Positions 2,391-64,000 of a stretch of DNA of 64,000 nt are shown here, in pieces. A program made the translations under genes and the position numbers. Position 1 is the stretch's first letter, and each line of letters begins with the position of its first letter. The DNA comes from Eledone cirrhosa. Lineage: Eukaryota. The stretch covers positions 54,312,001 to 54,376,000 of the forward strand of contig OZ024742.1 in the NCBI GenBank assembly GCA_964016885.1, in the 5' to 3' direction. The notes under the pieces were generated by a model. The model had not been told where the DNA came from, ran no database searches, and saw nothing but the letters and a program-made list of their open reading frames with translations.

Positions 2391-4740
2391 AAACGTAAAT
2401 CAGGTTCTCTGAATTGCAAGGGAATTTTTTTTTTTACTGTAAAAGTTTGGCCATCTTTAAATGTGAATTTTTGTCCTTCAATTAAGTATAGGAATGCGCC
2501 ACAGTTTGTTCTTCCGCATTTTGTTACCGCAGGATTGGAGATTGTTTTTTTTTGGATATTTGTTCCAGTGAGAATGTGTTTTAATGATTTGGGTTGCTTT
2601 TGCTTTTAATGATCTTGTGTTTCTAGGATTTTTTCATTTTTTCATCTTTAAATAGAATGGGGAGGTTTTTGCTTAGCAGGTCGAACATTTCGGTGTTTCA
2701 GGGGTTGAACGGGGATATATATGGTAAGATATTGTTTGTGGTTCTGTGCTTTGGGTTTTTTGGCTGATGAAAATTTGCGTGTTTTGCTCTGTCTATTCCA
2801 ATATTAATTATATCAACTGTGAAGGCTCTTAAGTGTATTTTTTAGTTCATTTAGTTTTTCTTCACGTTTAGCTGGGTCTGATACTATGGTATGATTAGAT
2901 TATGGTATGGCTAGATTAAAAGGAATGTTAAGTTGTGTATGTTTTGTGTGATTTGATGTGAAGAGGACGTACTTTTTGTTGTCCGTGGTTTATAATAGAT
3001 GTCTGTTTCTATTTTTCCATGTTTTTAAAATAAGGATATCCAAGAAGGCTAATTCCTTGGAGTTGGATTCCATTGTGAATTGTATGTTATTGTTAATATT
3101 GTTTATCATATTTTTGAAAAGAGTGAGTGTATTCATGACTTCCTGCCATAGTATAAAGCAATCATCTAGGCATCTCTTCCAATTGTTTTTGAGATGTGTA
3201 AGGAAAGAGTCTCCGAATAATTGATGGGAATGGTTGTAGATATTTTGTTCGTAGAATCCCATGACGAAGTCGGCGTATGTGGGGCTACCTTCATGCCCAT
3301 TGCAGTATCTGAGATTTGTCGATATGTTGAACCATTGAAAATAAAATTATTATTCTGTAAGATAAATCAGAGTCCGTCAATAATAAAGTTTTTCTTGGTG
3401 CGTGTTGGTATTTCAGGGATTGCCGTTATTCTATAGTTGTGGGGTATGTTAGTGTAATGGTTTACTACGTCAAAGGAGACAAGAATTGTGGCTTTACTTA
3501 CTGTTTTAGGTAGGTGATTCAGCATATTAAGGTCATCCCGTATGTAAACCTGTATATCTTTTAGTAAGGGCTGTATTAGGATGTCCTGGAATTTGCTAAG
3601 TCTGTGGGTTTCACATGCAGGGCCTGCTATAATTGGTTTGAGTTTTAAGTTTTCTGGTGGTGTTAATTGAATTTATTTGTTAGTCGAAGTGTCATGCATC
3701 GGTTTTGAGTTTACATTTGTGTATCTTCGGTAAGCTGTAGAAAGCACTTGTTTCATATTTGAAATGGCTTATATATTCAAATTTTTTTGTGGTTAGGCTA
3801 TTGCGATATTTTTGTAGTAATGCTAGGAGATTCCCCATTGATTTAGTTTGTTTGTAGTTTTCTGTTTTTTCGTAGTACTTGTCGTTTAAGATTTTAAGTG
3901 CCAGGTCTCTATAGTAGTTGTTATTGTTTAAGACTTCTGTTGCGGGTTCATGTTGTCTGGGTAGGTTCTTTCTGGGATAAATAGTGTTGATGTTATGGGG
4001 ATATTTTGTGTAGTGTTGGGGGTGATACCTGTTGTAGATGTTAATGTGGGAAGGTTTTGTTAGGATTTCATGTGGTCTGGGTGGATTTCTTCTGAAGTAT
4101 AAGGTGTCTATGTTGGGGGTTAGTTCTATGTTGTTTTGGGGTTGGTTTCTGTAGGAGATATTTTTGTGGATATATATGTTGTGGTGGTTGGGTATGTTTC
4201 TTCTGCTGTAGTTGGTCGTATTTGTTTTTTGCTGAGTGGGGTTTTGTCTGTGGTTTATGCGTGTTGAGGTTGGTGGAATATATGTTTCTGTGGGGTTTCT
4301 TGCTTTGTTTAATTTCTTTATAAAGGGGTTATCTGTGTGATGTATTCTTTTGAAATCCTCTTCATATTTAAGGAACCAATTTTCAGATTTTTCCCATCGT
4401 TTTATTGAAATTAGTTTTGCATTCTCGGAGTCCGGTTTCCAGGAGTTAATTAAATGTTGTAGAGTTTTTAGCACATTCTTCTTCCATTTATTGGAGGTGG
4501 CTCTTAATTTTAAGAGTTCTATTTCGATATTCACTTTGTTGAGTGACATTTGTTCTCGTAGTTTCTTTGTTGTTCAGGTTCATTAATTATAGGTTTTATT
4601 TGAAATTTACGGGGTAAGGTTTGGAGTTGATACATTTTTCATAGATTCCAGCTTTGTTCACATTTTTCACCATATTCCGAAAAAGTGAATTTTCTTGTTT
4701 TCAAGTTTTTTTTCCAGAAGTGTCCAATTTTGATGTGATG
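2391..4740 (-). pseudogene. Decayed Penelope-like element: N-terminal region, RT and Cys-rich linker, interrupted by the LTR element at the start of GIY-YIG
   Basis: FYSLPKIHK, LKPIIAGPACETHRLS, WKRCLDDCFILW, IQFTME..LAFLDILI and KCGRTNCG motifs spread over frameshifted ORFs (3692-4549, 2990-3262). Confidence 0.9.
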
Positions 4741-9900: not shown

Positions 9901-12900
9901 ACAGTGGAAGAGGGGCAGGAAAGCTATAACTAATTAACATTGCGTCTGTGCGTGCGTGCGTGCGTGTGTGTATGTCCGTGCAGCGTTCCAGTAAGAACTT
10001 CAAAAATAAGGTATCTATTTTTGAAGTTCTAGTTAAACTTTATTTAGTTACCTACATAGCTATGTGTGCTTACACACTTTTACAAATTATCCCCTGTGAT
10101 TGTTTCACATGTTTATTTTAGATATATTTATATGTCAATCAATTTCTAGTTGATATAAAATGCTCGGATCTATTCATTGGAATCTTGGAGCATATTTTAC
10201 GGGTGATATGGCGCATGTCTATCTGACATAACACCCTTAATTTAACTTAATTTTGTATATATATATTTATATATAATGTATGTATTTATATGTATGTATA
10301 TGTGTATATATATTTATATATATGAATATATGTGTATATATATATCTATATATATATATAGGGAAAAGTCTCCCTTTGGTCTCAAATGACCATGAGTTGT
10401 ACACCTGGTATGTTCCCGTTTGAGGCCAAGCCCCGGAGAACCCAGGACGCGATGACGTATGTGCGCGAGTACGGCAAACCAGACCTATTTATTACTTTTA
10501 CATGTAATCCTTCGTGGCAAGAAATTGCCCATGAACTCCTTCCAGGACAACAGCCCAGCGGTCGCCATGACCTCTCATCCAGAGTCTTAGAGCTAAAAGT
10601 ATACAAACTAATGGACCTTATCATAAAGGGCCAGGTATTTGGACGTGTGCAATGTTACATGTACACAATTGAATGGCAGAAGCGGGAACTCCCCCATGCT
10701 CACATTCTTATTTGGTTGTCGACAATAATCAGAGCAGACGACATCGACATGATTATATCCGCAGAGCTTCCAAACCCGCAAACTGACAAAACCCTATTTG
10801 ACAGGGTTACGTCGCACATGGTTCACGGTCCTTTTGGACGTGGCTTCAAATCTAACTCCCCGTGTTTGAACAACGGTATTTGCTCCAAAAAATACCCAAA
10901 AGCCTTCCTTTGCGAAATTCAAACTGCTGATGACGGATACCCATCATACAGACGAAGAAGCCCTGAGGACGGAGGATTAACAGCACTGGTTGGAAAACAT
11001 GAAATTGACAACCGATGGATTGTACCGTACTGCCCATTACTACTCAAGGCGTTCAACTCCCACATAAATGTTGAATGGTGCAACTCTATTAAATCAATCA
11101 AATATGTCTGCAAGTATATAAAGTAGGGCCCGGATGCCGCCATGTTCGGGCTTAAAGCAGAAAACAAACGGGATGAAGTTGCACAGTACCAATCAGCACA
11201 ATATATAAGTACCAGGGAGGCCTTTTGGCGAATTTACCGTTTCTCATGCACAGAAGATACCCTGTCGCCTAACACCTTGCTGTGCACCTGGAAAACGGCT
11301 AAAGAGTGTACTATACAAAACAAACAGGTTTTCAGAGGGCTCTGCAACCAAGGAACACAACTCTTACTGCATTCTTTCAACTATGTCAAGGCGACGCATT
11401 CGTTCGCACTTTGCTGTATCCCCAAGTCCCCTTTTTCTACAAATGGGAAAAATATTCATGAAAGCCAAGAATCAATGGTGAAAGCGTTGATTGTCATCCA
11501 TATTTTAACTTTGACAGCTGCCTGGCGCGAGTTTACACAGTGCCCCCCATCTACCAAGAATGTTACTACCTGCGTATGCTTCTCCATGACATAAGAGGAC
11601 CAACCAGTTTTCAACACCTAAGAACTGTTGATGGCCAAATTTGCGGCATGCACAGAGAGGCCTGCCTCAGGCGTGGACTACTGGAAATGGTGCTCTGTGG
11701 GATGCCACTTTGGCAGAAGTAGTTGTTTCACAAATGCCACACAGCCTTAGGAAGCTTTTTGCTGTCTTACTGTACATTTGTGAATTGCCCGATCCTTCCT
11801 TCTTGTGGATCAAGTACAGAGATGACCTCTCTGAGGACTTCAGACATCAAGCAAAATTACAACTTCCTGACATGGAAGTAGGCTTCACAGATGAAATCTA
11901 CAACAAAGCACTTATTGAAATTGAAAATATGGTTTCTGCAATGGGTGGGAATGCACTGCAGACATATTGCCTGCCCCAAACCAACAGAACAGGCTCCGAC
12001 GTCATTTCCGCAGAAATACTTCGGGAACTATCCTACGACACTGACAGCTTGGCTACATATGTCACTGAACATGAACCAATGCTGCTGCAGGAACAGGAAC
12101 GAGCATATAACACTATTGCTGACTGTGTCCACCGTCGTACGGGAGGAATCTTTTTCTTGGACGCCCCTGGAGGCACAGGGAAGACTTTTGTCATACGGCT
12201 TCTCCTTGCCAAGGTTCGACAACACAGACACATAGCACTTTCTGTTGCGTCTTCCGGTATTGCAGCAACCTTGCTTCCAGGGCCAGGACAGCACATTCAG
12301 CCTTCAAACTCCCCCTCAATATGACAGCAAATGACTCACCCTGCTGTAATATTACCAAAGACAGAACTGCTTAAAAGGTGTGAACTTATAGTTTGGGACG
12401 AATGTACCATGGCTCATAAAGGAGCTTTGGAGGCACTGGACCGGACTTTAAGAGACATAAGAGACTTCCAGGATCCCATGGGAGGCGTGACTGTCCTTTT
12501 ATCCGGAGATTTTAGACAAACCCTCCCTGTTATTCCCAAAGGAACAAGGGCTGATGCTATTCGAGCATGCTTAAAGTCATCTCCGCTTTGGCGTTATGTA
12601 ACAACATTATCTCTCTCTACGAACATGAGAGCTCGGATGCTTGGTGACCAAGTGTCATCAGATTTTGCTACCCACCTATTGACACTTTGGAACGGCAAAG
12701 TGCCACTTGATGAAGATGAAAAAATCTCCGTCGAACTGGTCTGCACTTTAGCCGACAGATGCAGTATTCCCTGAGTTGAGCACTAACTACCAAAATCCAA
12801 ACTGGCTGTGCGAAAGGGCAATACTGGCTCCGAAAAATGAGATTGTCGACAAAATCAACGGACAACTGCTTAAGTCTCTTCCTACAGCTTCGTGTACATA

Positions 12901-17579: not shown

Positions 17580-18422
17580 TTGAAGTTTCCGTTGAAAATT
17601 GAAAAAGTCATAGGAGTGAAGAGTGCTCTATGTAAGTACAAGAGCTAAATTTTAGCGAACCGATTAATTACATACCCAATAATACTAACTCCTTTAAACA
17701 TAATAATAGGAAAAGAAAAATAATCTGGTTCACCCCCCTACTTTTTAGCAGTTTAAACTAATGTAGGCAACACATTCCTAGAGCTCTTAGATAAACATTT
17801 CCCTAGAACACATAGATACTATAAGATCTTCAATAGAAACTATGTCAAAATTAGCTACTCCTGCGGTTCCCCTATTAAATCTTATATCATCAATAAGAAA
17901 TCACCTAGAGAACATCAAAATTGCTTCTGTAGAGTAAAAAGTAAATGCCCATTACAAGGTAAATGCAACACCAAAGCCATTGTATATGAGGCTAAAGTGA
18001 CAACCACCAGCAACAACCTACCAGCCACCAACGAACGATATGTGGGTATGACACAAGACAAATTCAAAACGCGTTATTACTCACATGTCGCATCTTTCCG
18101 ACATCCTGAAAAAAGATTTACAACAGCTCTGGCTAGCAGAATATGGGATTTGAAAGACCAAGGTATCCAATATAAATTAGATTGGTCAATTTTGAACCAA
18201 TCTAAAGAATATGCACGAGGAACAAGAAGATGCGCACTCTGCATAAGTGAAAAATATTGGATTTTACAGAACCTTAAATCACCAAAAACCTGCCTAAAGG
18301 CAAAAACAGAAATGTTCACCAGTTGCCCACACATGAAATCACACTTGCTTTCCAGCTCATATAAACTTAACTCACTTTCATATACTAATCCTCCATACAC
18401 TCTTGTTCTTCACTTTCCTTAA
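17580..18422 (+). pseudogene. Penelope-like element 3' fragment with GIY-YIG endonuclease (possibly Naiad type)
   Basis: RKRKIIWFTPP, KIFNRNYVKISYSC, CFCRVKSKCPLQGKC, IVYEAKV...YVGMT..FKTRYYSH and CALCISEK. Confidence 0.85.
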
Positions 18423-21733: not shown

Positions 21734-23869
21734 TCACCTTGATCACCTTGACCGACCTGTCTGGGCACAGCACGCCGTCGATTCCTCTCTGGATCGTGCT
21801 TTCCTCATCCATGTAGCCCAAATCATATTCCTAAAATCGTAACTCCACCTTCGTGGAGGCCTTCCGAGTGGTCGTTTCCGCTCGCGCGGGTACCACTCGG
21901 CAACTAGCGGCTCCACCGATTATTGGTGAACCGGGCGACGTGTCCAGCCCATCTGAACTTGCTGCGCATATATTCCGTGATGACGTCCCTCACGCCGGAC
22001 TTCTGTTTGAAGACTTCGCTCCTGATGTGCTCTCTCAACGAGAATCCTAGCATTGATCTCTCCATGGCTCTTGAGCCGTTACCAGCCTCTGCTCCTCTCT
22101 CTTCGTTGTAGCCCAACTTTCACTGCCATTTAACATTGCAAGTAAAACTGCTATTGAAGAGGTTGGCGCGGGTCGCCTTGTCCAACCTCCCCTTGAGCAC
22201 ATCCCTTATGCCGTTGAACGCCTTCCATCAGACCCTTATACTCCACGAGATCTCCCTCTCAATGTCTCGGCGCATGTTCACTTCTTGTCCTCGGTAGACG
22301 TATTCCTCCACTTCCTCTATTTCATCACCGCCAACCACCATTCGACGTGTTGGTACGTTGTCGGACCGCATGAACTTCGTTTTCATGCGGTTCATCTTGA
22401 GGCCTACTGCTGAGCTTTTGATGTCGAGCTCCGTCAGCATGGTCTGAAGCTGATCCGTGGTTTCAGCGATGAGTACGATGTAATCAGCGAAACGGAGGTG
22501 GGTAATTATCTCGCCGTTGATGCTGACGCCGCCTTGCCAGTCAATGCCTCTGATGATCACTTCGAGACACGCGGTGAAAAGTTTTGGAGAGATCGTATCT
22601 CCTTGCTTCACTCCCTTCTCGACCGGCACTCGTAGGGGTGATGACAGCAGAGCTATGTCGATGGTGCATCCGGAATTCGCCATCTTAAGCAGTTAAACGT
22701 ATTGCGCCTCGACTCCTTGCTTATGCAGCGATAAGCGACGAGCGACGCATACTTCAGGACGTCTCTCTCATAACGCCATTCAACACTGGTAGTGATCATC
22801 GTCTGGTGAGGGCGAAGGTCGTCATCGACCGGTGAGGGAGAAAAAGGCGCTGCATTTGGCGTCGAAGGGAGAACGCGTCCGGGTCTTCAACGAGGCGAAG
22901 CTGCAGGAACCCATCATGCAGGAAAACTGACGTCAAGGAGACGGCATAGATACTGACTACGACTCACTGATAAGGAAACTGAAGGAGTGCTTGAGGAAGG
23001 CTAAGGGTGTGTGCCCGAGGGAGTGGAACGGAAGAGTCTCGGAGGAAACTATGAAATTGCTTGAGAAGCGGAAGAATATGAAGAGAACACCTGAAAATCA
23101 CCTCGAATATTCCCTTCTCAGCAGAATGATACGTCAACAACTGAAGAGAGACTTAAGAAGCTCCTGAAGGCCGCAGAGGAAAAGAAGAGCCCCAATAAAT
23201 GCGAGATGGACATGGCAATGTACAGATCGGAGGTGACGACCCTGAAGAATACAGCTGGAGTACCGGTCAGCGACAAGAGTGAGGTGGAAAAGATTTGCGA
23301 AGACTTCTACACCAAGCTCTTCAAGTCTGCCGGGAATGTGCAGCCGTCGCCGTCACTCCAACAGGAAGAAAATGTGCCCTCCATCCTTGTCAGTGAGGTG
23401 AAAGAGCCGTCGGCTTGATGAAAAGCGGAAAGGCGCCAGGGAAAGACGGCATAAGATCGGAGGTGTTGAAGTCAGCCGGAGAGCAGCTCTGGAAAATCTT
23501 CGCCGAACGGTTCACACACTATCTGGACGAGGGAAGAATACCCTCGCAGTGGAAAGAGAAGAATACCATCCTACTATACAAGAAGGGCGATAGAGAAGAT
23601 CTGAAGAACTACCGACCCACATGCCTGCTGTCTCACGTGTACAAGCTGTTCACGAAGATAATCCTGAACAGGTTATCACGTCATCTGGACGAACAACAAC
23701 CGAGAGAGCAAGCCGGCTACGGAAGAACTACAGCACAATGGACCACATATTTACTCTGACACAACTTCTTGAGCGAGTGAAAGAGTAGAAGATGCCTCTT
23801 TGCGTCGCGTTCGTAAACTACGAGAAGGCCTTCGACAGCGTCGAATTCAACGCTGTGCTAAACTTGCTG
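21734..23869 (-). mobile_element. RTE-clade LINE with inverted 5' segment (3' part on - at 21734-22731; upstream part on + at 22732-23869)
   Basis: KGVKQGDTISPKLF, HLRFADYIVL and KFRWAGHVAR on -, with (TCAAGGTGA) tail repeats. GKAPGKDGI, KNYRPTCLL and YEKAFDSVE on +. Confidence 0.92.
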
Positions 23870-28679: not shown

Positions 28680-31600
28680 GAAAAAGAGATGAAATCGAAA
28701 ATGCAACTGGAGTCTTATTTTAAAAAAAAATGATATATATTTATTTGGTTCCTTTACCGGTTTCGCAGTTCTTCTGCCTTTCAAAAGTAGATTTGAGATG
28801 GAGGATCTGTGGTTTTTCTCACATCTGGTTGGTCTTTGGATGTTACTTGTTTTATATGGAAAAAAGTGGCTCGAAACGCCAGGTTTTTAGAGAAGTAATT
28901 TAATTGTTTGATGAATAAGTATAATAAATTTCGCGTCAGTTCGCGTAACAAAGTTCTTCAAACAGGGGGGGGGGGGCTCAGGTTGTTTTTTCATATATAA
29001 GTGAAGTTTGGTTGGTTGATGCAGTCACGTGCAGCTTTCGCGCCATTTTGTTTCAATTTCTTTTTATTTAAAAAAAGTGGCTCACGAAGGGTTTTTTTTT
29101 TTATAAATGTAATTTGATTGGTTATAAATTAAATTATGACTGTCACGTGAACAAGTTCATTAAATTTCGCGCCCGTATTTGGGAATTTATTTTGTAGCCT
29201 TTTCGAGAATTTTATGACAAACAAAAGATAATGGTCAAGAGAAATGGGATGAGGAGAATTGTTCTCGTCCAGTGAGTATGGCTGGTTCGCTGGGGTGTCA
29301 GAATTCAAACTTTCTATTGAAATAAAGAAAGTAGAGATATGTATGTTTATTTGTATGTGTGTGTGTGGGGGGGGGGGAGTATGTTAAGATGGAGAGAATA
29401 TATATATTTTGTGTGTGTATGTGTGTAGGAAAGTTATTCTATTAGTAGAAATGGGGGAGGGAGTTGTGTGTGTGGGCGGGAAGGTATAATGTGGGTGTGG
29501 GAGTATGGTTAGCATGTTAAGATGAAGAGAATATATATATTTTGTGTGTGTGTGTAGGAAAATGATTCCGTTAGTAGAAATGGGGGAGGGAGTTATGTGT
29601 GTGTGTGGGTGTGTGTGGGAGGTGTTAGAGTATTAACGTATGTTAAGGTATATTTAGTTCTGGTTTTTATTTTCTAAAGTAGAAGGTGTTATATGTGTGT
29701 GTGTATGTATGTGTCTGTTTGGATGGTTAGCATATTATGGTGTTGACATAATGTATCTTAAACTATATTTAATGCTGGTCTATATTTTTGAATAAACACA
29801 TTTTCGTTATTTATTCGTATTTGTTCTGTTGTATTGTCAGTGCAAATGTAAAACGGGAAGACTTGGAATTTGGGTGTCTTATTACTTGCGCATATGTCTA
29901 GATATGCACTTAGTGGTGTCTGTCTCGTGGTTGGATCTCGTAATTGTTGGCGATGCTGTTTCTGAGTGTGAGTTTAGTTTGTCCTATATAATCTTCATTG
30001 CATCCTTTACATTTAATGGCGTAAAGCGGATTTTTTGATGAGCAAGTGAAGTGATTTTTTACAGCAAAATTCTGTCCTGATTGAAATGTATACGTGTTGC
30101 CTTCAATGAGGTGAGTGCAGGTTCCACAATTAGAGCGACCAAATATTTTGACAGTTGGTTGTCGGTTTGTGGTAGATAATTTGGCATTGGTAAGTAATGT
30201 TTTTAGTGATTTCGGTTGTCTTTTGCTTTTGATTATTTTGTGTGTTTCAAGGGTTTTTTCATTCTTGGATCTTGTTTCAATAGTGGGATGTTCTTGTGAA
30301 TAGTGTTGTAAGCTTCCGCATTTCTCGGGTTGTGTGTTGAGATATATGATAGAATATTGGACGTACCTTGAATTTGTTTCTGTTTTCGTAATTCATCAAG
30401 GCCTATTGCTTTTCGCCCTTTCTATTCCACTATTTATTAGTAATGGTGAGTACTGTCTTTCGAGTAGAATTTCTTTTAATTCTTGAAGTCTTTTATTTCG
30501 CGTTTCATAATTGGAGACAAATGTGCAAATTCTTCTTGCTAGGTTAAAAGGAATGTTCGTCTTCGTGTGCTTTGGATGGTAAATAGCAGGTATTGTCTGG
30601 AATCTGTTGGTTTGTAGTGTATGTCAGTTTCAATATTTGTGTCTTTTTTTAAGATTAAGATGTCCAGAAATGGGAGTTGATCTTGGCTGTATTCCATGGT
30701 GATTTGGATGTGGTTATTCATGCCGTTTATTAAATTTTTGAAATCATTCAGTTGGTCGAGTGTGTGGGACCAAAGAATGAGACAATCATCCAAGTAGCGT
30801 TTCCAATTCTCTGATAAATATTTGTGGAAGTTCAATCCGTATTTTGATTTGGACTGTTCATATATCTGGACTTCTAAGTATGCCATGACTAAGTTGGCAT
30901 AAGTTGGAGCGGCTTTTGTACCCATCGCAGTCCCCGATATTTGCTGGTAAGTACTGTCATCGAAATCAAAAAAGTTGTTCTGTAAGATAAATTTAATCCC
31001 TCAGTGATGAAGCTTTTTTCTATTCTATCAGGTATCTCATTGGGATATTTCTCTAGCCAGAATCCTATTGCTTCTAGTCCGTATTGTTGTGGGATCGTTG
31101 TGTAGAGATTCACTATATAGAAAGACACAATAATAGTGTCGTTGTTGACATGTTTGGGGAGGTGGTTTAAGAGGTCCAGATCGTCTCTTACAAGGCTTGG
31201 TATGTGTTTGAGAATTGGTTTTAGTAGTATGTCTATAAAATTGCTTAGTCTGTGTGTTTCACATTGTAGGCCCGCTACAATTGGTCTTAATTTAAGGTCT
31301 GTAGGGTATTGTGTGTTCACGCAGTTTGAGGTGGATTGTTTACAGGCATCGTTAATTATTTTATACTTGTGGATCTTCGGAAGTCCATAAAGGTTGCTGG
31401 TATTGTGTTCAAAATGTGTTAAATAATCGCGTTCCTTTTTAGTTAAGTCTTCCTGGTATCGGCAAATCAGTGTGTTTAATCTGGTCATCGTTTTTGATTG
31501 CTGGTAGATTTTTTACTCTTTCATAGTAATTAGTATTTTGTAAGAGAGAGAACATAGAATTTTTATATTTTTCAGCATCCATAATGACGACAGTACTTCC

Positions 31601-35478: not shown

Positions 35479-35741
35479 ATATATATATATATATATATAT
35501 AATAAAGAATGTGTGTTAAAGAACCAGGTGAACCATAATGCACCAGAGTACTTGACACTTAGGGTAGTAGAGTGGGCAATAGGAAAAGAGTCACGACTTC
35601 GCCGGCTGGGCTCTGGCCGTTTCGACAGCTAGAACCCAACAAGTCTGTTCGGATCTAGCTGTCGAAACGGCCGGAGCTCAATATATATATAAGTTATTCC
35701 CGCTTGAATCGGAGTTAACCACAGTAATCTACTCAATACAT

Positions 35742-35895
35742 AGCAGAGTATAAAAGTTTTAATATAGAAGAGCTTCTACAGAACTAGAACTGTTTCATTC
35801 ATGAGAAATCATCAGGGAGCACTGATGATTTCTCATGAATGAAACAGTTCTAGTCGTGTAGAAGCTCTTCTATATTAAAACTTTTATACTCTGCT
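35742..35895. repeat. Palindrome of two back-to-back hammerhead cores
   Basis: TTTCATTCATGAGAAATCATCAG-ggagca-CTGATGATTTCTCATGAATGAAAC, with ~74-bp arms. Confidence 0.85.
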
Positions 35896-49847: not shown

Positions 49848-50029
49848 GTTTCTGAATTTGTGAATATGATAGAATATTGGTAGAGTCATTAAATACTGCA
49901 CACAGGTATACCTAATGTAAGAGGACACGTTGGTTTCGAACTTGAAGGCCTAGAAAAATAATGTCAATTTGGATCGAAGTTGTAGCCTCGGAGTAATACA
50001 TACCCTTTTCAAAGACCTCTCTGTATAGA

Positions 50030-50648
50030 TAAGAAATGCATAATCTGTAAACTAAGCTCCCACATTAACTGTAAAACTAGAAATGTAGTATATAGCAGTA
50101 TAGTATTGAAGGACAATGTAAAGATAAGAATATAGTGTACATAGTTGAGACAGCTCGTAGTATAGGAGAACGGTTAAATGAACACTGGCGAGAGCTTCAA
50201 GATAAAAAAGAATCACCAATACACCACCAACATGCTAAAATAGAACATAAGGGCAAATTAGAGAACATAGAAATAAAAATAGAATCTACACCCAGAAAAG
50301 ATGCAATGTTTAAACAAATCACATAGGCAATAAACATAAATGAACTCCAACCCAAATTAAATAGAAAACATGAATGGAATAGCAACATGACAACTTACAC
50401 AACACACCCAAAAACGAGATGGCGTAGGACGGAACAAAGGAGAGGGACAAAACAAAGAAAAGAATCCCCAGTCACTGAAGAGGTCACAGAATGTGTGACG
50501 AAGAACTTTGACAATATATGAACAACCGTCCGGTTGTGGAACCAACCAACCAACCAACCGGAAATTTATAAATTTAATTTATAATAAATTGGAGTGAAAG
50601 CAACTGGTGCGTGTGTTTCTTATTGGCAACATGACCCTCCCAAAGTAT

Positions 50649-50650: not shown

Positions 50651-50700
<50 letters not shown>

Positions 50701-50703
<3 letters not shown>

Positions 50704-52890
50704 TATAGACATAGAATATTCGAAAATATTCTGTATGTTTATAATAAACATTTTGAAGACCTAATCGCTATAGAATAGAATACGTCACGTATTACAATTA
50801 GATTCTCGATAAAAGCAAGGGAAGTAATCTACGCGTTTCATTCTCGTTAGAAATCATCAGGACTACATATCCAGTGCTTTTATCGAGAATGACACAGCTA
50901 GAGACTTATAGAATACTTAGCTGTGTACAGGAACTGGTTTGAAAGAGCGGTTGCCGGTCCGGCAGAAATTAGAAATTGGAATAAATGCTCTGAAATAGCG
51001 ATATATATGTGAATATAGACATAGAATATTCGAAAATATTCTGTATGTTTATAATAAACATTTTGAAGACCTAATCGCTATAGAATAGAATACGTCACGT
51101 ATTACAATTAGATTCTCGATAAAAGCAAGGGAAGTAATCTACGCGTTTCATTCTCGTTAGAAATCATCAGGACTACATATCCAGTGCTTTTATCGAGAAT
51201 GACACAGCTAGAGACTTATAGAATACTTAGCTGTGTACAGGAACTGGTTTGAAAGAGCGGTTGCCGGTCCGGCAGAAATTAGAAATTGGAATAAATGCTC
51301 TGAAATAGCGATATATATGTGAATATAGACATAGAATATTCGAAAATATTCTGTATGTTTATAATAAACATTTTGAAGACCTAATCGCTATAGAATAGAA
51401 TACGTCACGTATTACAATTAGATTCTCGATAAAAGCAAGGGAAGTAATCTACGCGTTTCATTCTCGTTAGAAATCATCAGGACTACATATCCAGTGCTTT
51501 TATCGAGAATGACACAGCTAGAGACTTATAGAATACTTAGCTGTGTACAGGAACTGGTTTGAAAGAGCGGTTGCCGGTCCGGCAGAAATTAGAAATTGGA
51601 ATAAATGCTCTGAAATAGCGATATATATGTGAATATAGACATAGAATATTCGAAAATATTCTGTATGTTTATAATAAACATTTTGAAGACCTAATCGCTA
51701 TAGAATAGAATACGTCACGTATTACAATTAGATTCTCGATAAAAGCAAGGGAAGTAATCTACGCGTTTCATTCTCGTTAGAAATCATCAGGACTACATAT
51801 CCAGTGCTTTTATCGAGAATGACACAGCTAGAGACTTATAGAATACTTAGCTGTGTACAGGAACTGGTTTGAAAGAGCGGTTGCCGGTCCGGCAGAAATT
51901 AGAAATTGGAATAAATGCTCTGAAATAGCGATATATATGTGAATATAGACATAGAATATTCGAAAATATTCTGTATGTTTATAATAAACATTTTGAAGAC
52001 CTAATCGCTATAGAATAGAATACGTCACGTATTACAATTAGATTCTCGATAAAAGCAAGGGAAGTAATCTACGCGTTTCATTCTCGTTAGAAATCATCAG
52101 GACTACATATCCAGTGCTTTTATCGAGAATGACACAGCTAGAGACTTATAGAATACTTAGCTGTGTACAGGAACTGGTTTGAAAGAGCGGTTGCCGGTCC
52201 GGCAGAAATTAGAAATTGGAATAAATGCTCTGAAATAGCGATATATATGTGAATATAGACATAGAATATTCGAAAATATTCTGTATGTTTATAATAAACA
52301 TTTTGAAGACCTAATCGCTATAGAATAGAATACGTCACGTATTACAATTAGATTCTCGATAAAAGCAAGGGAAGTAATCTACGCGTTTCATTCTCGTTAG
52401 AAATCATCAGGACTACATATCCAGTGCTTTTATCGAGAATGACACAGCTAGAGACTTATAGAATACTTAGCTGTGTACAGGAACTGGTTTGAAAGAGCGG
52501 TTGCCGGTCCGGCAGAAATTAGAAATTGGAATAAATGCTCTGAAATAGCGATATATATGTGAATATAGACATAGAATATTCGAAAATATTCTGTATGTTT
52601 ATAATAAACATTTTGAAGACCTAATCGCTATAGAATAGAATACGTCACGTATTACAATTAGATTCTCGATAAAAGCAAGGGAAGTAATCTACGCGTTTCA
52701 TTCTCGTTAGAAATCATCAGGACTACATATCCAGTGCTTTTATCGAGAATGACACAGCTAGAGACTTATAGAATACTTAGCTGTGTACAGGAACTGGTTT
52801 GAAAGAGCGGTTGCCGGTCCGGCAGAAATTAGAAATTGGAATAAATGCTCTGAAATAGCGATATATATGTGAATATAGACATAGAATATT
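50701..52890 (-). repeat. 310-bp hammerhead-bearing tandem array, left arm (7 units + 20 bp)
   Basis: GAATATAGAC recurs at 50701, 51011, 51321, 51631, 51941, 52251, 52561 and 52871. The ribozyme motif is on the - strand. Confidence 0.97.
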
Positions 52891-55800
52891 ATTCCAATTT
52901 CTAATTTCTGCCGGACCGGCAACCGCTCTTTCAAACCAGTTCCTGTACACAGCTAAGTATTCTATAAGTCTCTAGCTGTGTCATTCTCGATAAAAGCACT
53001 GGATATGTAGTCCTGATGATTTTTAACGAGAATGAAACGCGTAGATTACTTCCCTTGCTTTTATCGAGAATCTAATTGTAATACGTGACGTATTCTATTC
53101 TATAGCGATTAGGTCTTCAAAATGTTTATTATAAACATACAGAATATTTTCGAATATTCTATGTCTATATTCACATATATATCGCTATTTCAGAGCATTT
53201 ATTCCAATTTCTAATTTCTGCCGGACCGGCAACCGCTCTTTCAAACCAGTTCCTGTACACAGCTAAGTATTCTATAAGTCTCTAGCTGTGTCATTCTCGA
53301 TAAAAGCACTGGATATGTAGTCCTGATGATTTCTAACGAGAATGAAACGCGTAGATTACTTCCCTTGCTTTTATCGAGAATCTAATTGTAATACGTGACG
53401 TATTCTATTCTATAGCGATTAGGTCTTCAAAATGTTTATTATAAACATACAGAATATTTTCGAATATTCTATGTCTATATTCACATATATATCGCTATTT
53501 CAGAGCATTTATTCCAATTTCTAATTTCTGCCGGACCGGCAACCGCTCTTTCAAACCAGTTCCTGTACACAGCTAAGTATTCTATAAGTCTCTAGCTGTG
53601 TCATTCTCGATAAAAGCACTGGATATGTAGTCCTGATGATTTCTAACGAGAATGAAACGCGTAGATTACTTCCCTTGCTTTTATCGAGAATCTAATTGTA
53701 ATACGTGACGTATTCTATTCTATAGCGATTAGGTCTTCAAAATGTTTATTATAAACATACAGAATATTTTCGAATATTCTATGTCTATATTCACATATAT
53801 ATCGCTATTTCAGAGCATTTATTCCAATTTCTAATTTCTGCCGGACCGGCAACCGCTCTTTCAAACCAGTTCCTGTACACAGCTAAGTATTCTATAAGTC
53901 TCTAGCTGTGTCATTCTCGATAAAAGCACTGGATATGTAGTCCTGATGATTTCTAACGAGAATGAAACGCGTAGATTACTTCCCTTGCTTTTATCGAGAA
54001 TCTAATTGTAATACGTGACGTATTCTATTCTATAGCGATTAGGTCTTCAAAATGTTTATTATAAACATACAGAATATTTTCGAATATTCTATGTCTATAT
54101 TCACATATATATCGCTATTTCAGAGCATTTATTCCAATTTCTAATTTCTGCCGGACCGGCAACCGCTCTTTCAAACCAGTTCCTGTACACAGCTAAGTAT
54201 TCTATAAGTCTCTAGCTGTGTCATTCTCGATAAAAGCACTGGATATGTAGTCCTGATGATTTCTAACGAGAATGAAACGCGTAGATTACTTCCCTTGCTT
54301 TTATCGAGAATCTAATTGTAATACGTGACGTATTCTATTCTATAGCGATTAGGTCTTCAAAATGTTTATTATAAACATACAGAATATTTTCGAATATTCT
54401 ATGTCTATATTCACATATATATCGCTATTTCAGAGCATTTATTCCAATTTCTAATTTCTGCCGGACCGGCAACCGCTCTTTCAAACCAGTTCCTGTACAC
54501 AGCTAAGTATTCTATAAGTCTCTAGCTGTGTCATTCTCGATAAAAGCACTGGATATGTAGTCCTGATGATTTCTAACGAGAATGAAACGCGTAGATTACT
54601 TCCCTTGCTTTTATCGAGAATCTAATTGTAATACGTGACGTATTCTATTCTATAGCGATTAGGTCTTCAAAATGTTTATTATAAACATACAGAATATTTT
54701 CGAATATTCTATGTCTATATTCACATATATATCGCTATTTCAGAGCATTTATTCCAATTTCTAATTTCTGCCGGACCGGCAACCGCTCTTTCAAACCAGT
54801 TCCTGTACACAGCTAAGTATTCTATAAGTCTCTAGCTGTGTCATTCTCGATAAAAGCACTGGATATGTAGTCCTGATGATTTCTAACGAGAATGAAACGC
54901 GTAGATTACTTCCCTTGCTTTTATCGAGAATCTAATTGTAATACGTGACGTATTCTATTCTATAGCGATTAGGTCTTCAAAATGTTTATTATAAACATAC
55001 AGAATATTTTCGAATATTCTATGTCTATATTCACATATATATCGCTATTTCAGAGCATTTATTCCAATTTCTAATTTCTGCCGGACCGGCAACCGCTCTT
55101 TCAAACCAGTTCCTGTACACAGCTAAGTATTCTATAAGTCTCTAGCTGTGTCATTCTCGATAAAAGCACTGGATATGTAGTCCTGATGATTTCTAACGAG
55201 AATGAAACGCGTAGATTACTTCCCTTGCTTTTATCGAGAATCTAATTGTAATACGTGACGTATTCTATTCTATAGCGATTAGGTCTTCAAAATGTTTATT
55301 ATAAACATACAGAATATTTTCGAATATTCTATGTCTATATTCACATATATATCGCTATTTCAGAGCATTTATTCCAATTTCTAATTTCTGCCGGACCGGC
55401 AACCGCTCTTTCAAACCAGTTCCTGTACACAGCTAAGTATTCTATAAGTCTCTAGCTGTGTCATTCTCGATAAAAGCACTGGATATGTAGTCCTGATGAT
55501 TTCTAACGAGAATGAAACGCGTAGATTACTTCCCTTGCTTTTATCGAGAATCTAATTGTAATACGTGACGTATTCTATTCTATAGCGATTAGGTCTTCAA
55601 AATGTTTATTATAAACATACAGAATATTTTCGAATATTCTATGTCTATATTCACATATATATCGCTATTTCAGAGCATTTATTCCAATTTCTAATTTCTG
55701 CCGGACCGGCAACCGCTCTTTCAAACCAGTTCCTGTACACAGCTAAGTATTCTATAAGTCTCTAGCTGTGTCATTCTCGATAAAAGCACTGGATATGTAG

Positions 55801-56622
55801 TCCTGATGATTTCTAACGAGAATGAAACGCGTAGATTACTTCCCTTGCTTTTATCGAGAATCTAATTGTAATACGTGACGTATTCTATTCTATAGCGATT
55901 AGGTCTTCAAAATGTTTATTATAAACATACAGAATATTTTCGAATATTCTATGTCTATATTCACATATATATCGCTATTTCAGAGCATTTATTCCAATTT
56001 CTAATTTCTGCCGGACCGGCAACCGCTCTTTCAAACCAGTTCCTGTACACAGCTAAGTATTCTATAAGTCTCTAGCTGTGTCATTCTCGATAAAAGCACT
56101 GGATATGTAGTCCTGATGATTTCTAACGAGAATGAAACGCGTAGATTACTTCCCTTGCTTTTATCGAGAATCTAATTGTAATACGTGACGTATTCTATTC
56201 TATAGCGATTAGGTCTTCAAAATGTTTATTATAAACATACAGAATATTTTCGAATATTCTATGTCTATATTCACATATATATCGCTATTTCAGAGCATTT
56301 ATTCCAATTTCTAATTTCTGCCGGACCGGCAACCGCTCTTTCAAACCAGTTCCTGTACACAGCTAAGTATTCTATAAGTCTCTAGCTGTGTCATTCTCGA
56401 TAAAAGCACTGGATATGTAGTCCTGATGATTTCTAACGAGAATGAAACGCGTAGATTACTTCCCTTGCTTTTATCGAGAATCTAATTGTAATACGTGACG
56501 TATTCTATTCTATAGCGATTAGGTCTTCAAAATGTTTATTATAAACATACAGAATATTTTCGAATATTCTATGTCTATATTCACATATATATCGCTATTT
56601 CAGAGCATTTATTCCAATTTCT
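52891..56622 (+). repeat. 310-bp hammerhead-bearing tandem array, right arm (12 units + 12 bp), reverse complement of left arm
   Basis: ATTCCAATTT recurs every 310 bp from 52891 to 56611. Confidence 0.97.
53317..53359 (+). ncRNA. Type I hammerhead ribozyme motif (representative; one per 310-bp unit, 19 in total)
   Basis: GTAGTC-CTGATGA-tTTCTaacgAGAAt-GAAAC-GC-GTA-GATTAC. Stem I is 6 bp, stem II is 4 bp, stem III is the palindrome ACGCGT, and cleavage is predicted after GUA. Confidence 0.88.
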
Positions 56623-56687
56623 TATATATATATATATATATAAAAATAAAGATCCGAAGGCAAGGTATAAATTTCCAATCATTTTAA

Positions 56688-61528: not shown

Positions 61529-64000
61529 AAAAAGATGAAATAGAAAATGCAACTGGAGTCTTATTTAAAAAAATATATATATATTTATTTGGTTCCTTTA
61601 CCGGTTTCGCAGTTCTTCTGCTTTTCAAAAGTAGAGTTGAGATGGAGGATCTGTGGTTTTTCTCACATCTGGTTGGTCTCTGAATGTTACTTGTTTTCTA
61701 TTGAAAAAGTGGCTCGAAATGCCAGGTTTTTCGAGAAGTAATTTGATTGTTTGGTCAATAATTATAATAAATTTCGCGCCAGTTCGCGTTACAAAGTTCT
61801 TCAAACAAGGGGTGGGGGGTCACAGGTTGTTTTTTCATATATGAGTGTTTGAATTTCTTTTTACTTAAAAAAGGGGCTCACGAATGCTTTTTTTAAATAA
61901 ACGTAATTTGATTGGTTATAAATGAAATTATGGCTGTCACGTGTACAAGTTTTCATTACATTTTCGCGCCCTTATTTGGAAATCCATTCTGTAGCCTTTT
62001 TAGAGGATTTTATGATAAGTAAAAGATAATGGTCAAGAGAAATGGGATAGGAGAATTGTTCTGGTTTTGTGAATATGGTTAGTTCGCTGGGGGAGTCAGA
62101 ATTCAGATTTTCTATTGAATAAAGAAAGTAGAGATATGTATGTTTATTTGTTTGCTTGTGTGTGTGTGCGTGTGTGTGGGTGTGTGTGTGTGTTGTGTGT
62201 GTTTGAATTTCTTTTTACTTAAAAAAGGGGCTCACGAAGGCTTTTTTTTAATAAACGTAATTTGATTGGTTATAAATCAAATTATGGCTGTCAGGTGAAC
62301 AAGTTTTCATTAAATTTTCGCGCCTATATTTGGGAATGTGTGTATGTGTGTATTGGAAGATGATTCTATTAGTAGAAATGGGTGAGGGAGTTGTGTGTGA
62401 GTGTGTATATGGGTGTTATGTGTGTGTGTGTGGGTGTATGTTAAGATGGAGAGAATATATATTTTGTGTGTGTGTATATATGTGTGTAGGAAAGTGATTC
62501 TATTAGTAGAAATGGAGGAGTGGAGTTGTGTGTGGGGTGGGGGTTGTTATGTGTGTGTATGGGTGTTATGTGTGTAGGAGTATTGTTAGCATATTAAGAT
62601 GAAGAGAATATATATATATTGTGTGTGTGTGTGTGTGTAGGAACATGATTACTTTAGTAGGAATATTTTGAATGAACATATTTTCCTTACTTATTCGTAT
62701 TTGTTCTGTTGTATGGTCAGTGCAAACGTATGTTAAGGTTTATTTAGTTCGGGTTTTTATTTTCTAAAGTAGAAGGTATTATGTGTGCTGTATGTGTCTG
62801 TTTGGATGGTTAGCATGTTATGGTGTTGACATAATGTATATTAAACCATATTTAATGCTGTTCCATATTTTTAAATAAACATATTTTCCTTATTTATTCG
62901 TATTTGTTCTGTTGTATTGTTAGCGCAAAGGTAAAATGGGAAGACCTGGAATTTGGGTGTCTTATTACTTGCGCATATGTCTAGATGTGCGCTTAGTAGT
63001 ATCTGTCTCGTGGTTGGATCTCGTAAGTTTTGGCGATGAACTGACATTCTGTTTCTGAGTGTGAGTTTAGTTTATCCTTCATTGCATCCTTTACATTTAA
63101 TGGCATAAACTAGATTTTTTGATGAGCAAGTGAAGAGATTGTTTACAGTAAAATTTTGTCCTGATTTAAATGTATACGTGTTGCCTTCAATGAGGTGAGT
63201 GCAGGTTCCACAATTAGAGCGACCACATTTTTTGACACTTGGTTGTGGATTTGTGGTAGGTAATTTGGAATTGATGAGTAATGTTTTCAGTGATTTCGGT
63301 TGTCTTTTGCTTTTGATTATTTTGTGTGACCTTAAATTAAGACCAATTGTAGCGGGCCCACAATGTGAAACACACAGACTGAGCAACTTTATAGACATAC
63401 TACTAAAGCCAATTCTCAAACACATACCAAGCCTTGTAAGAGACGATCTAAACCTCTTAAACCACCTCTCCCAAAATGTCAACAACGACACTATTATTAT
63501 CTCTTTTGATGGAGTGAATCTCTACACAACGATCCCACACCAATACGGACTAGAAGCAATAGGTTTCTGGCTACAGAAATATCCCAATGAGATACCTGAC
63601 AGAATAGAAAAAAGCTTCATCTCCGAGGGATTAAAATCCATCTTACAGAACAACTTTTTTGATTTCGATGGCAGTACTTACAAGCAAATATCGGGGACTG
63701 CGATGGGTACAAAAGCCGCTCCAACTTATGCCAACTTAGTCATGGCATACTTAGAAGTCCAGATATATGAACAGTCCAAATCAAAATACGGATTGAACTT
63801 CCACAAATATTTATCAGAGAATTGGAAACGCTGATTGTCTCATTCTTTGGTCCCACACACTCGACCAACTGAAGGATTTCAAAAACTTAATAAACGACAT
63901 CAATAACCACATCCAATTCACAATGGAATACAGCCAAGATCAACTCCCATTTCTGGACATCTTAAGCTTAAAAAAGACACAAATATTGAAACTGACATAC
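61525..64000 (-). mobile_element. Penelope-like element, same family as 28680-34302, with internal inversion at 63328
   Basis: The pLTR and GIY-YIG part is on - (KCGRSNCGTC..NLVYAIKCKGC). The RT part from DLKLRPIVAGP is on + and runs off the window. Confidence 0.92.

Follow-up and report, generated by a model that had tools for sequence, protein, structure and literature searches.

How did 19 copies of a 310-nt hammerhead ribozyme unit come to lie head to head in a (TA)n tract of the Eledone cirrhosa genome, seven of them reading leftward and twelve rightward? The array lies within a 64,000-nt stretch of DNA (assembly GCA_964016885.1, contig OZ024742.1, positions 54,312,001 to 54,376,000), which is referred to here as the window and to which all coordinates without a locus name belong. 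Based on the window and a set of related loci, we propose that the array is one young insertion, in which the reverse transcriptase (RT) and endonuclease of a Penelope-like element would have copied a single RNA, probably a 310-nt circle traversed many times, with both cut strands of the (TA)n target as primers. We put the probability of this model as a whole at roughly two in three.

The geometry of the array is simple. Units are numbered from the first base 3' of the predicted hammerhead cut (between GUA and G), and a full unit between consecutive predicted cuts spans 53354-53663 on the plus strand (310 nt). Arm A, on the left, occupies 50700-52890 of the minus strand (2191 nt, equal to 7 units plus 21 nt, with 7 hammerheads); its 5' end is unit position 110 and its 3' end is position 130, here called site A, with zero mismatches to the unit. 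Arm B, on the right, occupies 52889-56622 of the plus strand (3734 nt, 12 units plus 14 nt, with 12 hammerheads) and runs from position 156 to position 169, within the second end class, site B, with a single mismatch. This sole unit-specific substitution of the array, one change in 19 units, is at 53023 on the plus strand, at position 290 in hammerhead stem II of the innermost full unit of arm B. Tandem repeat detection returned the same 310-nt period, with 7.1 and 12.0 copies in the two arms. The ribozyme-sense 3' ends of both arms point outward and abut (TA)n, on the left an unstranded tract at 50653-50699 whose final letters are in register with unit positions 131-139, and on the right an unstranded tract at 56623-56642 that adjoins the 3' end of arm B. 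The arms overlap at 52889-52890, an unstranded head-to-head joint with a 2-nt TT microhomology. The initial annotation, made from the sequence alone, had described 7 leftward and 12 rightward units with outward 3' ends and the TT microhomology, and both descriptions hold.

By the sequence features set out in PMC7229834, the unit is a non-LTR (long terminal repeat) retrozyme with a predicted type I hammerhead. The ribozyme is predicted at 53627-53669 on the plus strand and comprises stem I, CUGAUGA, stem II, GAAA and a short stem III that sits within the palindrome ACGCGU, with the cut after 53663; the core letters and stems I-III were all present by inspection. Rfam gave a weak full-length alignment to Hammerhead_HH9 (15.8 bits, E 0.22, against a gathering score of 52) and zero matches in the window at the gathering threshold. 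None of 42 fixed variants fell in the 12 core positions, where 1.6 would be expected, a difference that is not significant as a sign of selection on the core. The GC content of the unit is ~0.34 (0.34-0.36), the array has no LTRs, and it holds no reading frame of at least 150 amino acids and none with the RT and GIY-YIG domains of an autonomous Penelope-like element. These properties resemble those reported for metazoan non-LTR retrozymes (PMC7229834; 10.64898/2026.07.22.740005), which form thousands of dispersed, non-coding arrays of 150-450 bp tandem repeats with GC below 50%, carry one type I hammerhead with a short palindromic stem III per unit and reside in genomes rich in Penelope-like elements. 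Self-cleavage and expression as linear and circular RNA are further traits of this class. Those papers demonstrated expression and cleavage, which for the E. cirrhosa family are predictions from DNA sequence; the interval 53354-53663 is likely to correspond to the circular RNA form. A hairpin at 53451-53470 on the plus strand (positions 98-117) lies just 5' of site A, and its stem is preserved by paired changes in older sister families, as judged by eye; it likely belongs to the signal bound by the enzyme.

To evaluate whether the window is typical, family members were located in the 3.0-Gb host genome by pattern searches with words from the unit. A 30-letter word had 16,447 exact matches (~16,400 units), the window's own variant had 4,085, and the 781 forward matches of one end pattern suggest about 1,500 loci. 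The sample of 80 loci comprises the window itself, 66 loci within the initial 96 Mb of contig C1, and 13 regions spread over five further contigs; these regions contained 15 arrays or arms and are counted into the 80. Rows were dropped for L081 (already contained in L082), the leading copy of the tandem pair in L060, a sister-family piece in L045 that is 80% alike, a third arm in L051 that belongs to L052, and the inner duplicated pieces of L041 and L185; the latter two loci were also omitted from the joint counts. Among the 80 loci, 66 were two-armed, all of them head to head, and 14 were single-armed. Ten single arms end at site A, three at or near site B, and one at site B runs into an assembly gap; site A may thus prime first or more reliably. 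Single-armed loci include L033, L083-L090 and L186, and L084 retains an 11-nt remnant of site B. A lone site-B arm at L178:6623-7300 has its 5' end in a degenerate TTAGGG-rich array.

Two-armed loci obeyed a strict rule of polarity and of ends. Outward polarity was found in 29/29 both-strand loci that had not been chosen by their ends (9/9, 7/7 and 13/13, the last being picks by an internal variant), and random inversion is excluded because of this uniformity; 40 two-armed loci selected by end pattern, in which polarity is forced by the selection, were left out of this test. In all 66 two-armed loci, one 3' end fell at 126-139 and the other at 163-172 (one was scored at 157, with local substitutions), and two ends of the same class were never found together. 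The most frequent site-A ends were 130 (35 loci) and 139 (18 loci), and the most frequent site-B end was 165 (43 loci). Because every locus has one end at each site, the entry points are fixed. The initial annotation had predicted the same outward polarity at other genomic copies, which was borne out, and for variable entry points, which these fixed ends refute. The modal ends 130 and 165 delimit a ~35-nt interval (53483-53518 on the plus strand) that matches the 30-40 nt 'tail' of Penelope-like elements, often present at one end only (PMC8557442, PMC3846280).

The two sites differ in their relation to the target. At site A, 53/66 ends (130 or 139) lie in a common register that would allow (TA)n to base-pair with AUAUAUAU of the unit; at site B, only 1-3 letters match the target. 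The similarity of the left flank to the monomer pointed out in the initial annotation, 9/10 identical letters between 50691-50700 and the unit's own ATATATATGT, was confirmed and is meaningful, since those 53 ends use that register; the final letters of the left (TA)n tract may have been the pairing partner at site A. In contigs of run X5, whose independence of the assembly is uncertain, loose (TA)n ends likewise follow positions 139 and 170. (TA)n flanks recurred among the loci examined, a sample in which end-selected loci are biased for (TA)n, and L124 lies in AT-rich non-repeat DNA. Non-LTR retrozymes, where they have a target duplication, have one longer than 4 bp. A strict test found target duplications in 4/53 loci, where 0.25 would be expected; each of the four is compatible with a length of 11-12 bp, although two lie in periodic microsatellites. 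L124 carries the clearest of them, and the pure (TA)n of the window precludes reading one there. Twin priming at two fixed sites is very probably the origin of this pattern. The earlier proposal that both target ends primed synthesis is thus supported by polarity, fixed ends, inner microhomology and, where visible, 11-12 bp duplications, whereas the LINE (long interspersed nuclear element) model it invoked does not fit and a Penelope-like one does.

The inner joint behaves quite differently from the outer ends. The 132 arm 5' ends of the 66 two-armed loci are uniform over the unit (p 0.63). Among the first 50 loci, the 5' ends of site-A arms had clustered at 100-135 (11 vs 5.8, p 0.03, with the interval chosen post hoc), and all 132 ends taken together are uniform. 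Joints were overlapping or blunt in 41/64 cases, with a mean of 2.5 nt against 0.76 for random joins, and 23 contained filler of 1-272 nt; the longest, at L053:1599-1870, is an unrelated, GC-rich stretch of 272 nt that was captured there. The initial annotation had attached significance to an inversion junction exactly at the loop of the hairpin. In fact, the window joint lies at the boundary of stem and loop, outside the loop itself, and a position in the hairpin is a matter of chance (9/132 5' ends against 8.5 expected).

Variants within the arrays provide insight into the template. The same variant set was present on both arms in 44/45 loci with at least two units in each arm, where 21 sets occur and the probability of chance sharing is 0.11. 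Variant 92G, found in 13 loci, is confined to a single unit in 8 and present in every unit in 5, never in an intermediate number, and the locus-variant pairs over the 80 loci comprise 150 fixed, 90 single-unit and 17 intermediate cases; these distributions imply that new variants pass through a one-unit bottleneck. Across 573 crossings of the predicted cut site, 2 changes were counted and 2.3 expected, and thus the data give no indication of jumps from one linear monomer to another. Arms average 4.7 units with a maximum of 27, at least two units are present in 103/132 arms, and array length does not correlate with the density of private changes (rho -0.05, n=40), which indicates no growth with age. 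A circular monomer is the probable template. Copied many times, it would fit the variant, length and cut-site data, and local amplification would fit them less well. Of the initial claim that a circular or multimeric template was circled many times, one shared template and many passes over one unit are supported, and the circle itself is only deduced from DNA structure; to call the array a direct footprint of circular RNA retrotransposition was accordingly too strong.

Two features of the variants bear on the RNA itself. Variants at scattered turns without periodicity occur in L062, L067, L053 and L183 (276 A>G, 45 A>G, 99 G>T and 185 G>C), and could be explained by short gene conversions or by an edited or damaged base in one RNA that the polymerase misread during some of its passes. 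The ratio of A>G to T>C is 8:2 among fixed variants and 12:13 among single-unit variants (Fisher p 0.09, with the direction of change uncertain), which gives only a hint of an A-to-G bias among the former.

The proposed sequence of events combines these observations with the known behavior of related systems. As in other retrozymes, arrays would be transcribed, cut by the hammerhead and closed into monomer circles, which PMC7229834 proposed as templates for tandem complementary DNA (cDNA). A Penelope-like protein acting in trans would bind near the hairpin and cut both target strands with a stagger of ~11-12 nt, a value that derives from the duplications at a few loci. Priming by one target 3' end would then occur at site A, with help from base pairs between (TA)n and AUAUAUAU of the RNA, and the second 3' end would prime at site B over 1-3 paired nt; the end positions themselves are observed. 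Each polymerase would travel round the presumed circle until it falls off at random, as the random 5' ends and lengths suggest, and the two cDNA ends, joined through microhomology or short filler in a repair step, would give the observed head-to-head joint.

Alternative explanations differ mainly in what was copied and when the arms grew. The same two-site priming might have taken place on an uncut linear multimer, or on two RNAs in a form of dual priming. An anole Penelope-like protein works on unprocessed RNA (PMC11167929), both arms of L075 carry 204T in the same turn, the arms of L062 are mixed, and a multimer would likewise cross the cut site without a scar. Sharing at the same turn is found in just 1/37 unit-specific variants within jointly covered turns, however, and both the all-or-one distribution of 92G and the excess of fixed over intermediate pairs (150 vs 17) need a single-unit bottleneck. 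In addition, copying of a linear array can only shorten it, which is difficult to reconcile with arms of up to 27 units, and with two independent RNAs the arms should disagree at the majority of loci, whereas 1/45 did so; we therefore consider this version unlikely. Less probable still is a short inverted Penelope-type insert whose arms were later expanded as satellite DNA through unequal crossover, slippage or DNA circles. Such a history accounts for the fixed ends and the variants common to both arms, DNA-level duplications do exist at L060, L041, L185 and L052, and local amplification of retrozyme tandems has been proposed (10.64898/2026.07.22.740005). It would nevertheless require that nearly every insert expand rapidly in both arms, given the 103/132 arms with two or more units, and it conflicts with the independence of length and private-change density, with the 19 units and one change of the window and with the 90 single-unit against 17 intermediate variants.

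Fold-back or self-priming on cDNA or antisense RNA, in which only one target strand primes, would accord with the contact of the window joint with the hairpin, and PMC3846280 takes palindromes at the inverted junctions of Penelope as self-priming on an antisense template. For this family, the reading is largely refuted, and we regard it as very improbable: the two inner ends are unrelated (offset of at most 12 nt in 8/66 loci vs 5.3 expected), arm A is the longer in 34/66, the hairpin is not enriched for 5' ends, and the constant placement of the second outer end on the other fixed site is left unexplained. Units so nearly identical, at a locus whose left flank drew no reads from two Hi-C runs and no spanning contig from run X1, also raise the question of an assembly artefact or of random satellite rearrangement, but 66 loci with differing joints and flanks obey one end rule, all 29 unselected loci face outward, and the X5 contigs, if independent, carry the same loose ends. 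Rearrangement of satellite DNA is further contradicted by the fixed ends and by the presence of 92G in one unit or in all, and explanations of this type are hardly credible.

Several observations weigh against priming of both strands on a single monomer circle. L062 carries 276G in 7/7 units of arm A and in only the inner 2/6 of arm B, and seven non-fixed variants in six loci are present on both arms of their locus, where a clean monomer circle predicts none; gene conversion, a multimeric template or a misread template base could lie behind such mixed arms and shared variants. A variant pair repeated 7 units apart in L052 points to DNA-level duplication or a multimer, and duplications are also seen in the joint region of L041 and L185, over the whole locus in L060 and as the 7-unit block in L052. 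The concordance of the arms could partly reflect an RNA pool dominated by one variant at a time. Evidence for the stagger is reduced by the two strict duplications in periodic microsatellites and by L062 and L063, which fit 11-12 bp poorly. The anole element used unprocessed RNA in vitro and did not need the ribozyme (PMC11167929). All loci come from one assembly, 66/80 of them from contig C1. Finally, the search of two endonuclease families yielded no autonomous element with the site A-B region in common: 40 endonuclease loci of these families and 10 longer loci had no homology to positions 59-235 beyond an isolated 15-mer (E 0.15), which was dismissed as chance.

The genome is nonetheless rich in sequences related to the proposed enzyme. 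First-look searches gave 67,107 and 14,049 Penelope-like candidates genome-wide, and the window holds reading-frame fragments of at least two Penelope-like families (3692-4573, 17757-18422, 29910-31512 and 63199-63834), which may be Nematis-like and Neptune-like. The left neighbor of the array, at ~49900-50645, is by eye the 3' end of an older Penelope-like element, as indicated by a GIY-YIG remnant similar to the frame of L107 and a degenerate hammerhead near 50470, and the array appears by eye to be placed in the (TA)n that terminates this element. Other mobile sequences in the window are a broken Helitron Rep/helicase at 10362-12324 (Pfam Helitron_like_N, E 3e-33) and a LINE RT fragment at 22228-22692.

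Related hammerhead repeats extend these observations to other families. Older sister retrozyme families (4,102 matches; L091-L120) have units of ~314-324 nt, share positions 59-235 with this family at ~80% and, by visual inspection of individual loci rather than a tally, have their ends at both of the homologous sites. Their hammerheads differ from that of this retrozyme or are decayed relative to it, and ends and ribozyme seem to be modules that can be swapped between families. A short head-to-head insert at ~35690-35895 of the window belongs to another hammerhead family with a stem II nearly that of this retrozyme; its outward 3' ends again lie at two different sites, and similar copies occur in L062, L080, L084 and L095. 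L060 also contains, at 1244 and 1710, a different hammerhead repeat of 466-nt period. Sequencing data under 18 organism codes include the unit, with no RNA set among them, which is neutral as to expression. Runs X1, X3 and X10 each gave one low-depth unit contig and raw reads under the organism code of X1 gave no match, and we do not take these occurrences as evidence of spread between species.

Comparison with known retroelements places the retrozyme between two well-described systems. As in LINE-1 twin or dual priming (PMC2837659), both strands would prime, 3' ends face outward, the inner joint has microhomology and the target is duplicated in a few loci. In LINE-1, however, poly(A) serves the first primer, the second site is internal and variable, and the arms represent different parts of the RNA with an internal deletion, whereas the retrozyme has two fixed sites 35 nt apart and no poly(A), and both of its arms copy the whole unit repeatedly. 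Two arms are also the rule in the retrozyme (66/80 loci), in contrast to LINE-1. The resemblance to endonuclease-bearing Penelope-like elements is closer (PMC3846280, PMC8557442, PMC11167929): these form an inverted, 5'-truncated copy head to head, carry a one-sided 30-40 nt tail and target microsatellites, with short target duplications (8-10 bp in a rotifer). In the experiments of PMC11167929, both target strands were cleaved and elongated by a Penelope-like protein in vitro, and reverse transcription began from a pair of neighboring internal positions in the RNA that correspond to the tail seen in genomes. Unlike these elements, the retrozyme lacks a reading frame and its arms consist of many tandem units of one small RNA. 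Published accounts attribute the inversion to self-priming (PMC3846280) or, in the scheme of Frangieh et al. (PMC11167929), show one priming event followed by second-strand synthesis, and PMC8557442 calls the formation of tandem and inverted Penelope-like structures undefined. We tentatively suggest a default mode of integration for Penelope-like elements, in which a dimer may grip one RNA and start synthesis on both target strands, each at its own set site; with the retrozyme as template, both polymerases would follow one another around the same 310-nt RNA circle. The odds are slightly against this extension.

Earlier publications already describe the type of retrozyme family, the inversion, the tail at a single end and the pair of start sites. 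A word search of PMC7229834 and 10.64898/2026.07.22.740005, within the text available from each, returned nothing on inverted or two-armed arrays or fixed end sites. More generally, neither the rule of one end at each site on a shared template nor multi-turn two-armed retrozyme arrays were stated in the literature searched, which lay outside supplements and most subscription papers. Reverse transcription of retrozyme circles is a proposal of PMC7229834, against which 10.64898/2026.07.22.740005 sets local DNA amplification, and neither, in the portions available, tests its view through insertion structure. If our reading is true, the family would represent a natural rolling-circle, double-ended, target-primed reverse transcription that wrote ~5 Mb of this genome, and each array would be a multi-pass readout of one RNA molecule, edited or damaged bases included. 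Dimer priming, if true, would explain the inverted copy and the one-sided tail of the whole Penelope-like class. The family offers well over a thousand young insertions with readable ends, for which two start sites and a stagger can be named, and sets up a direct test with the 310-nt RNA and a (TA)n target.

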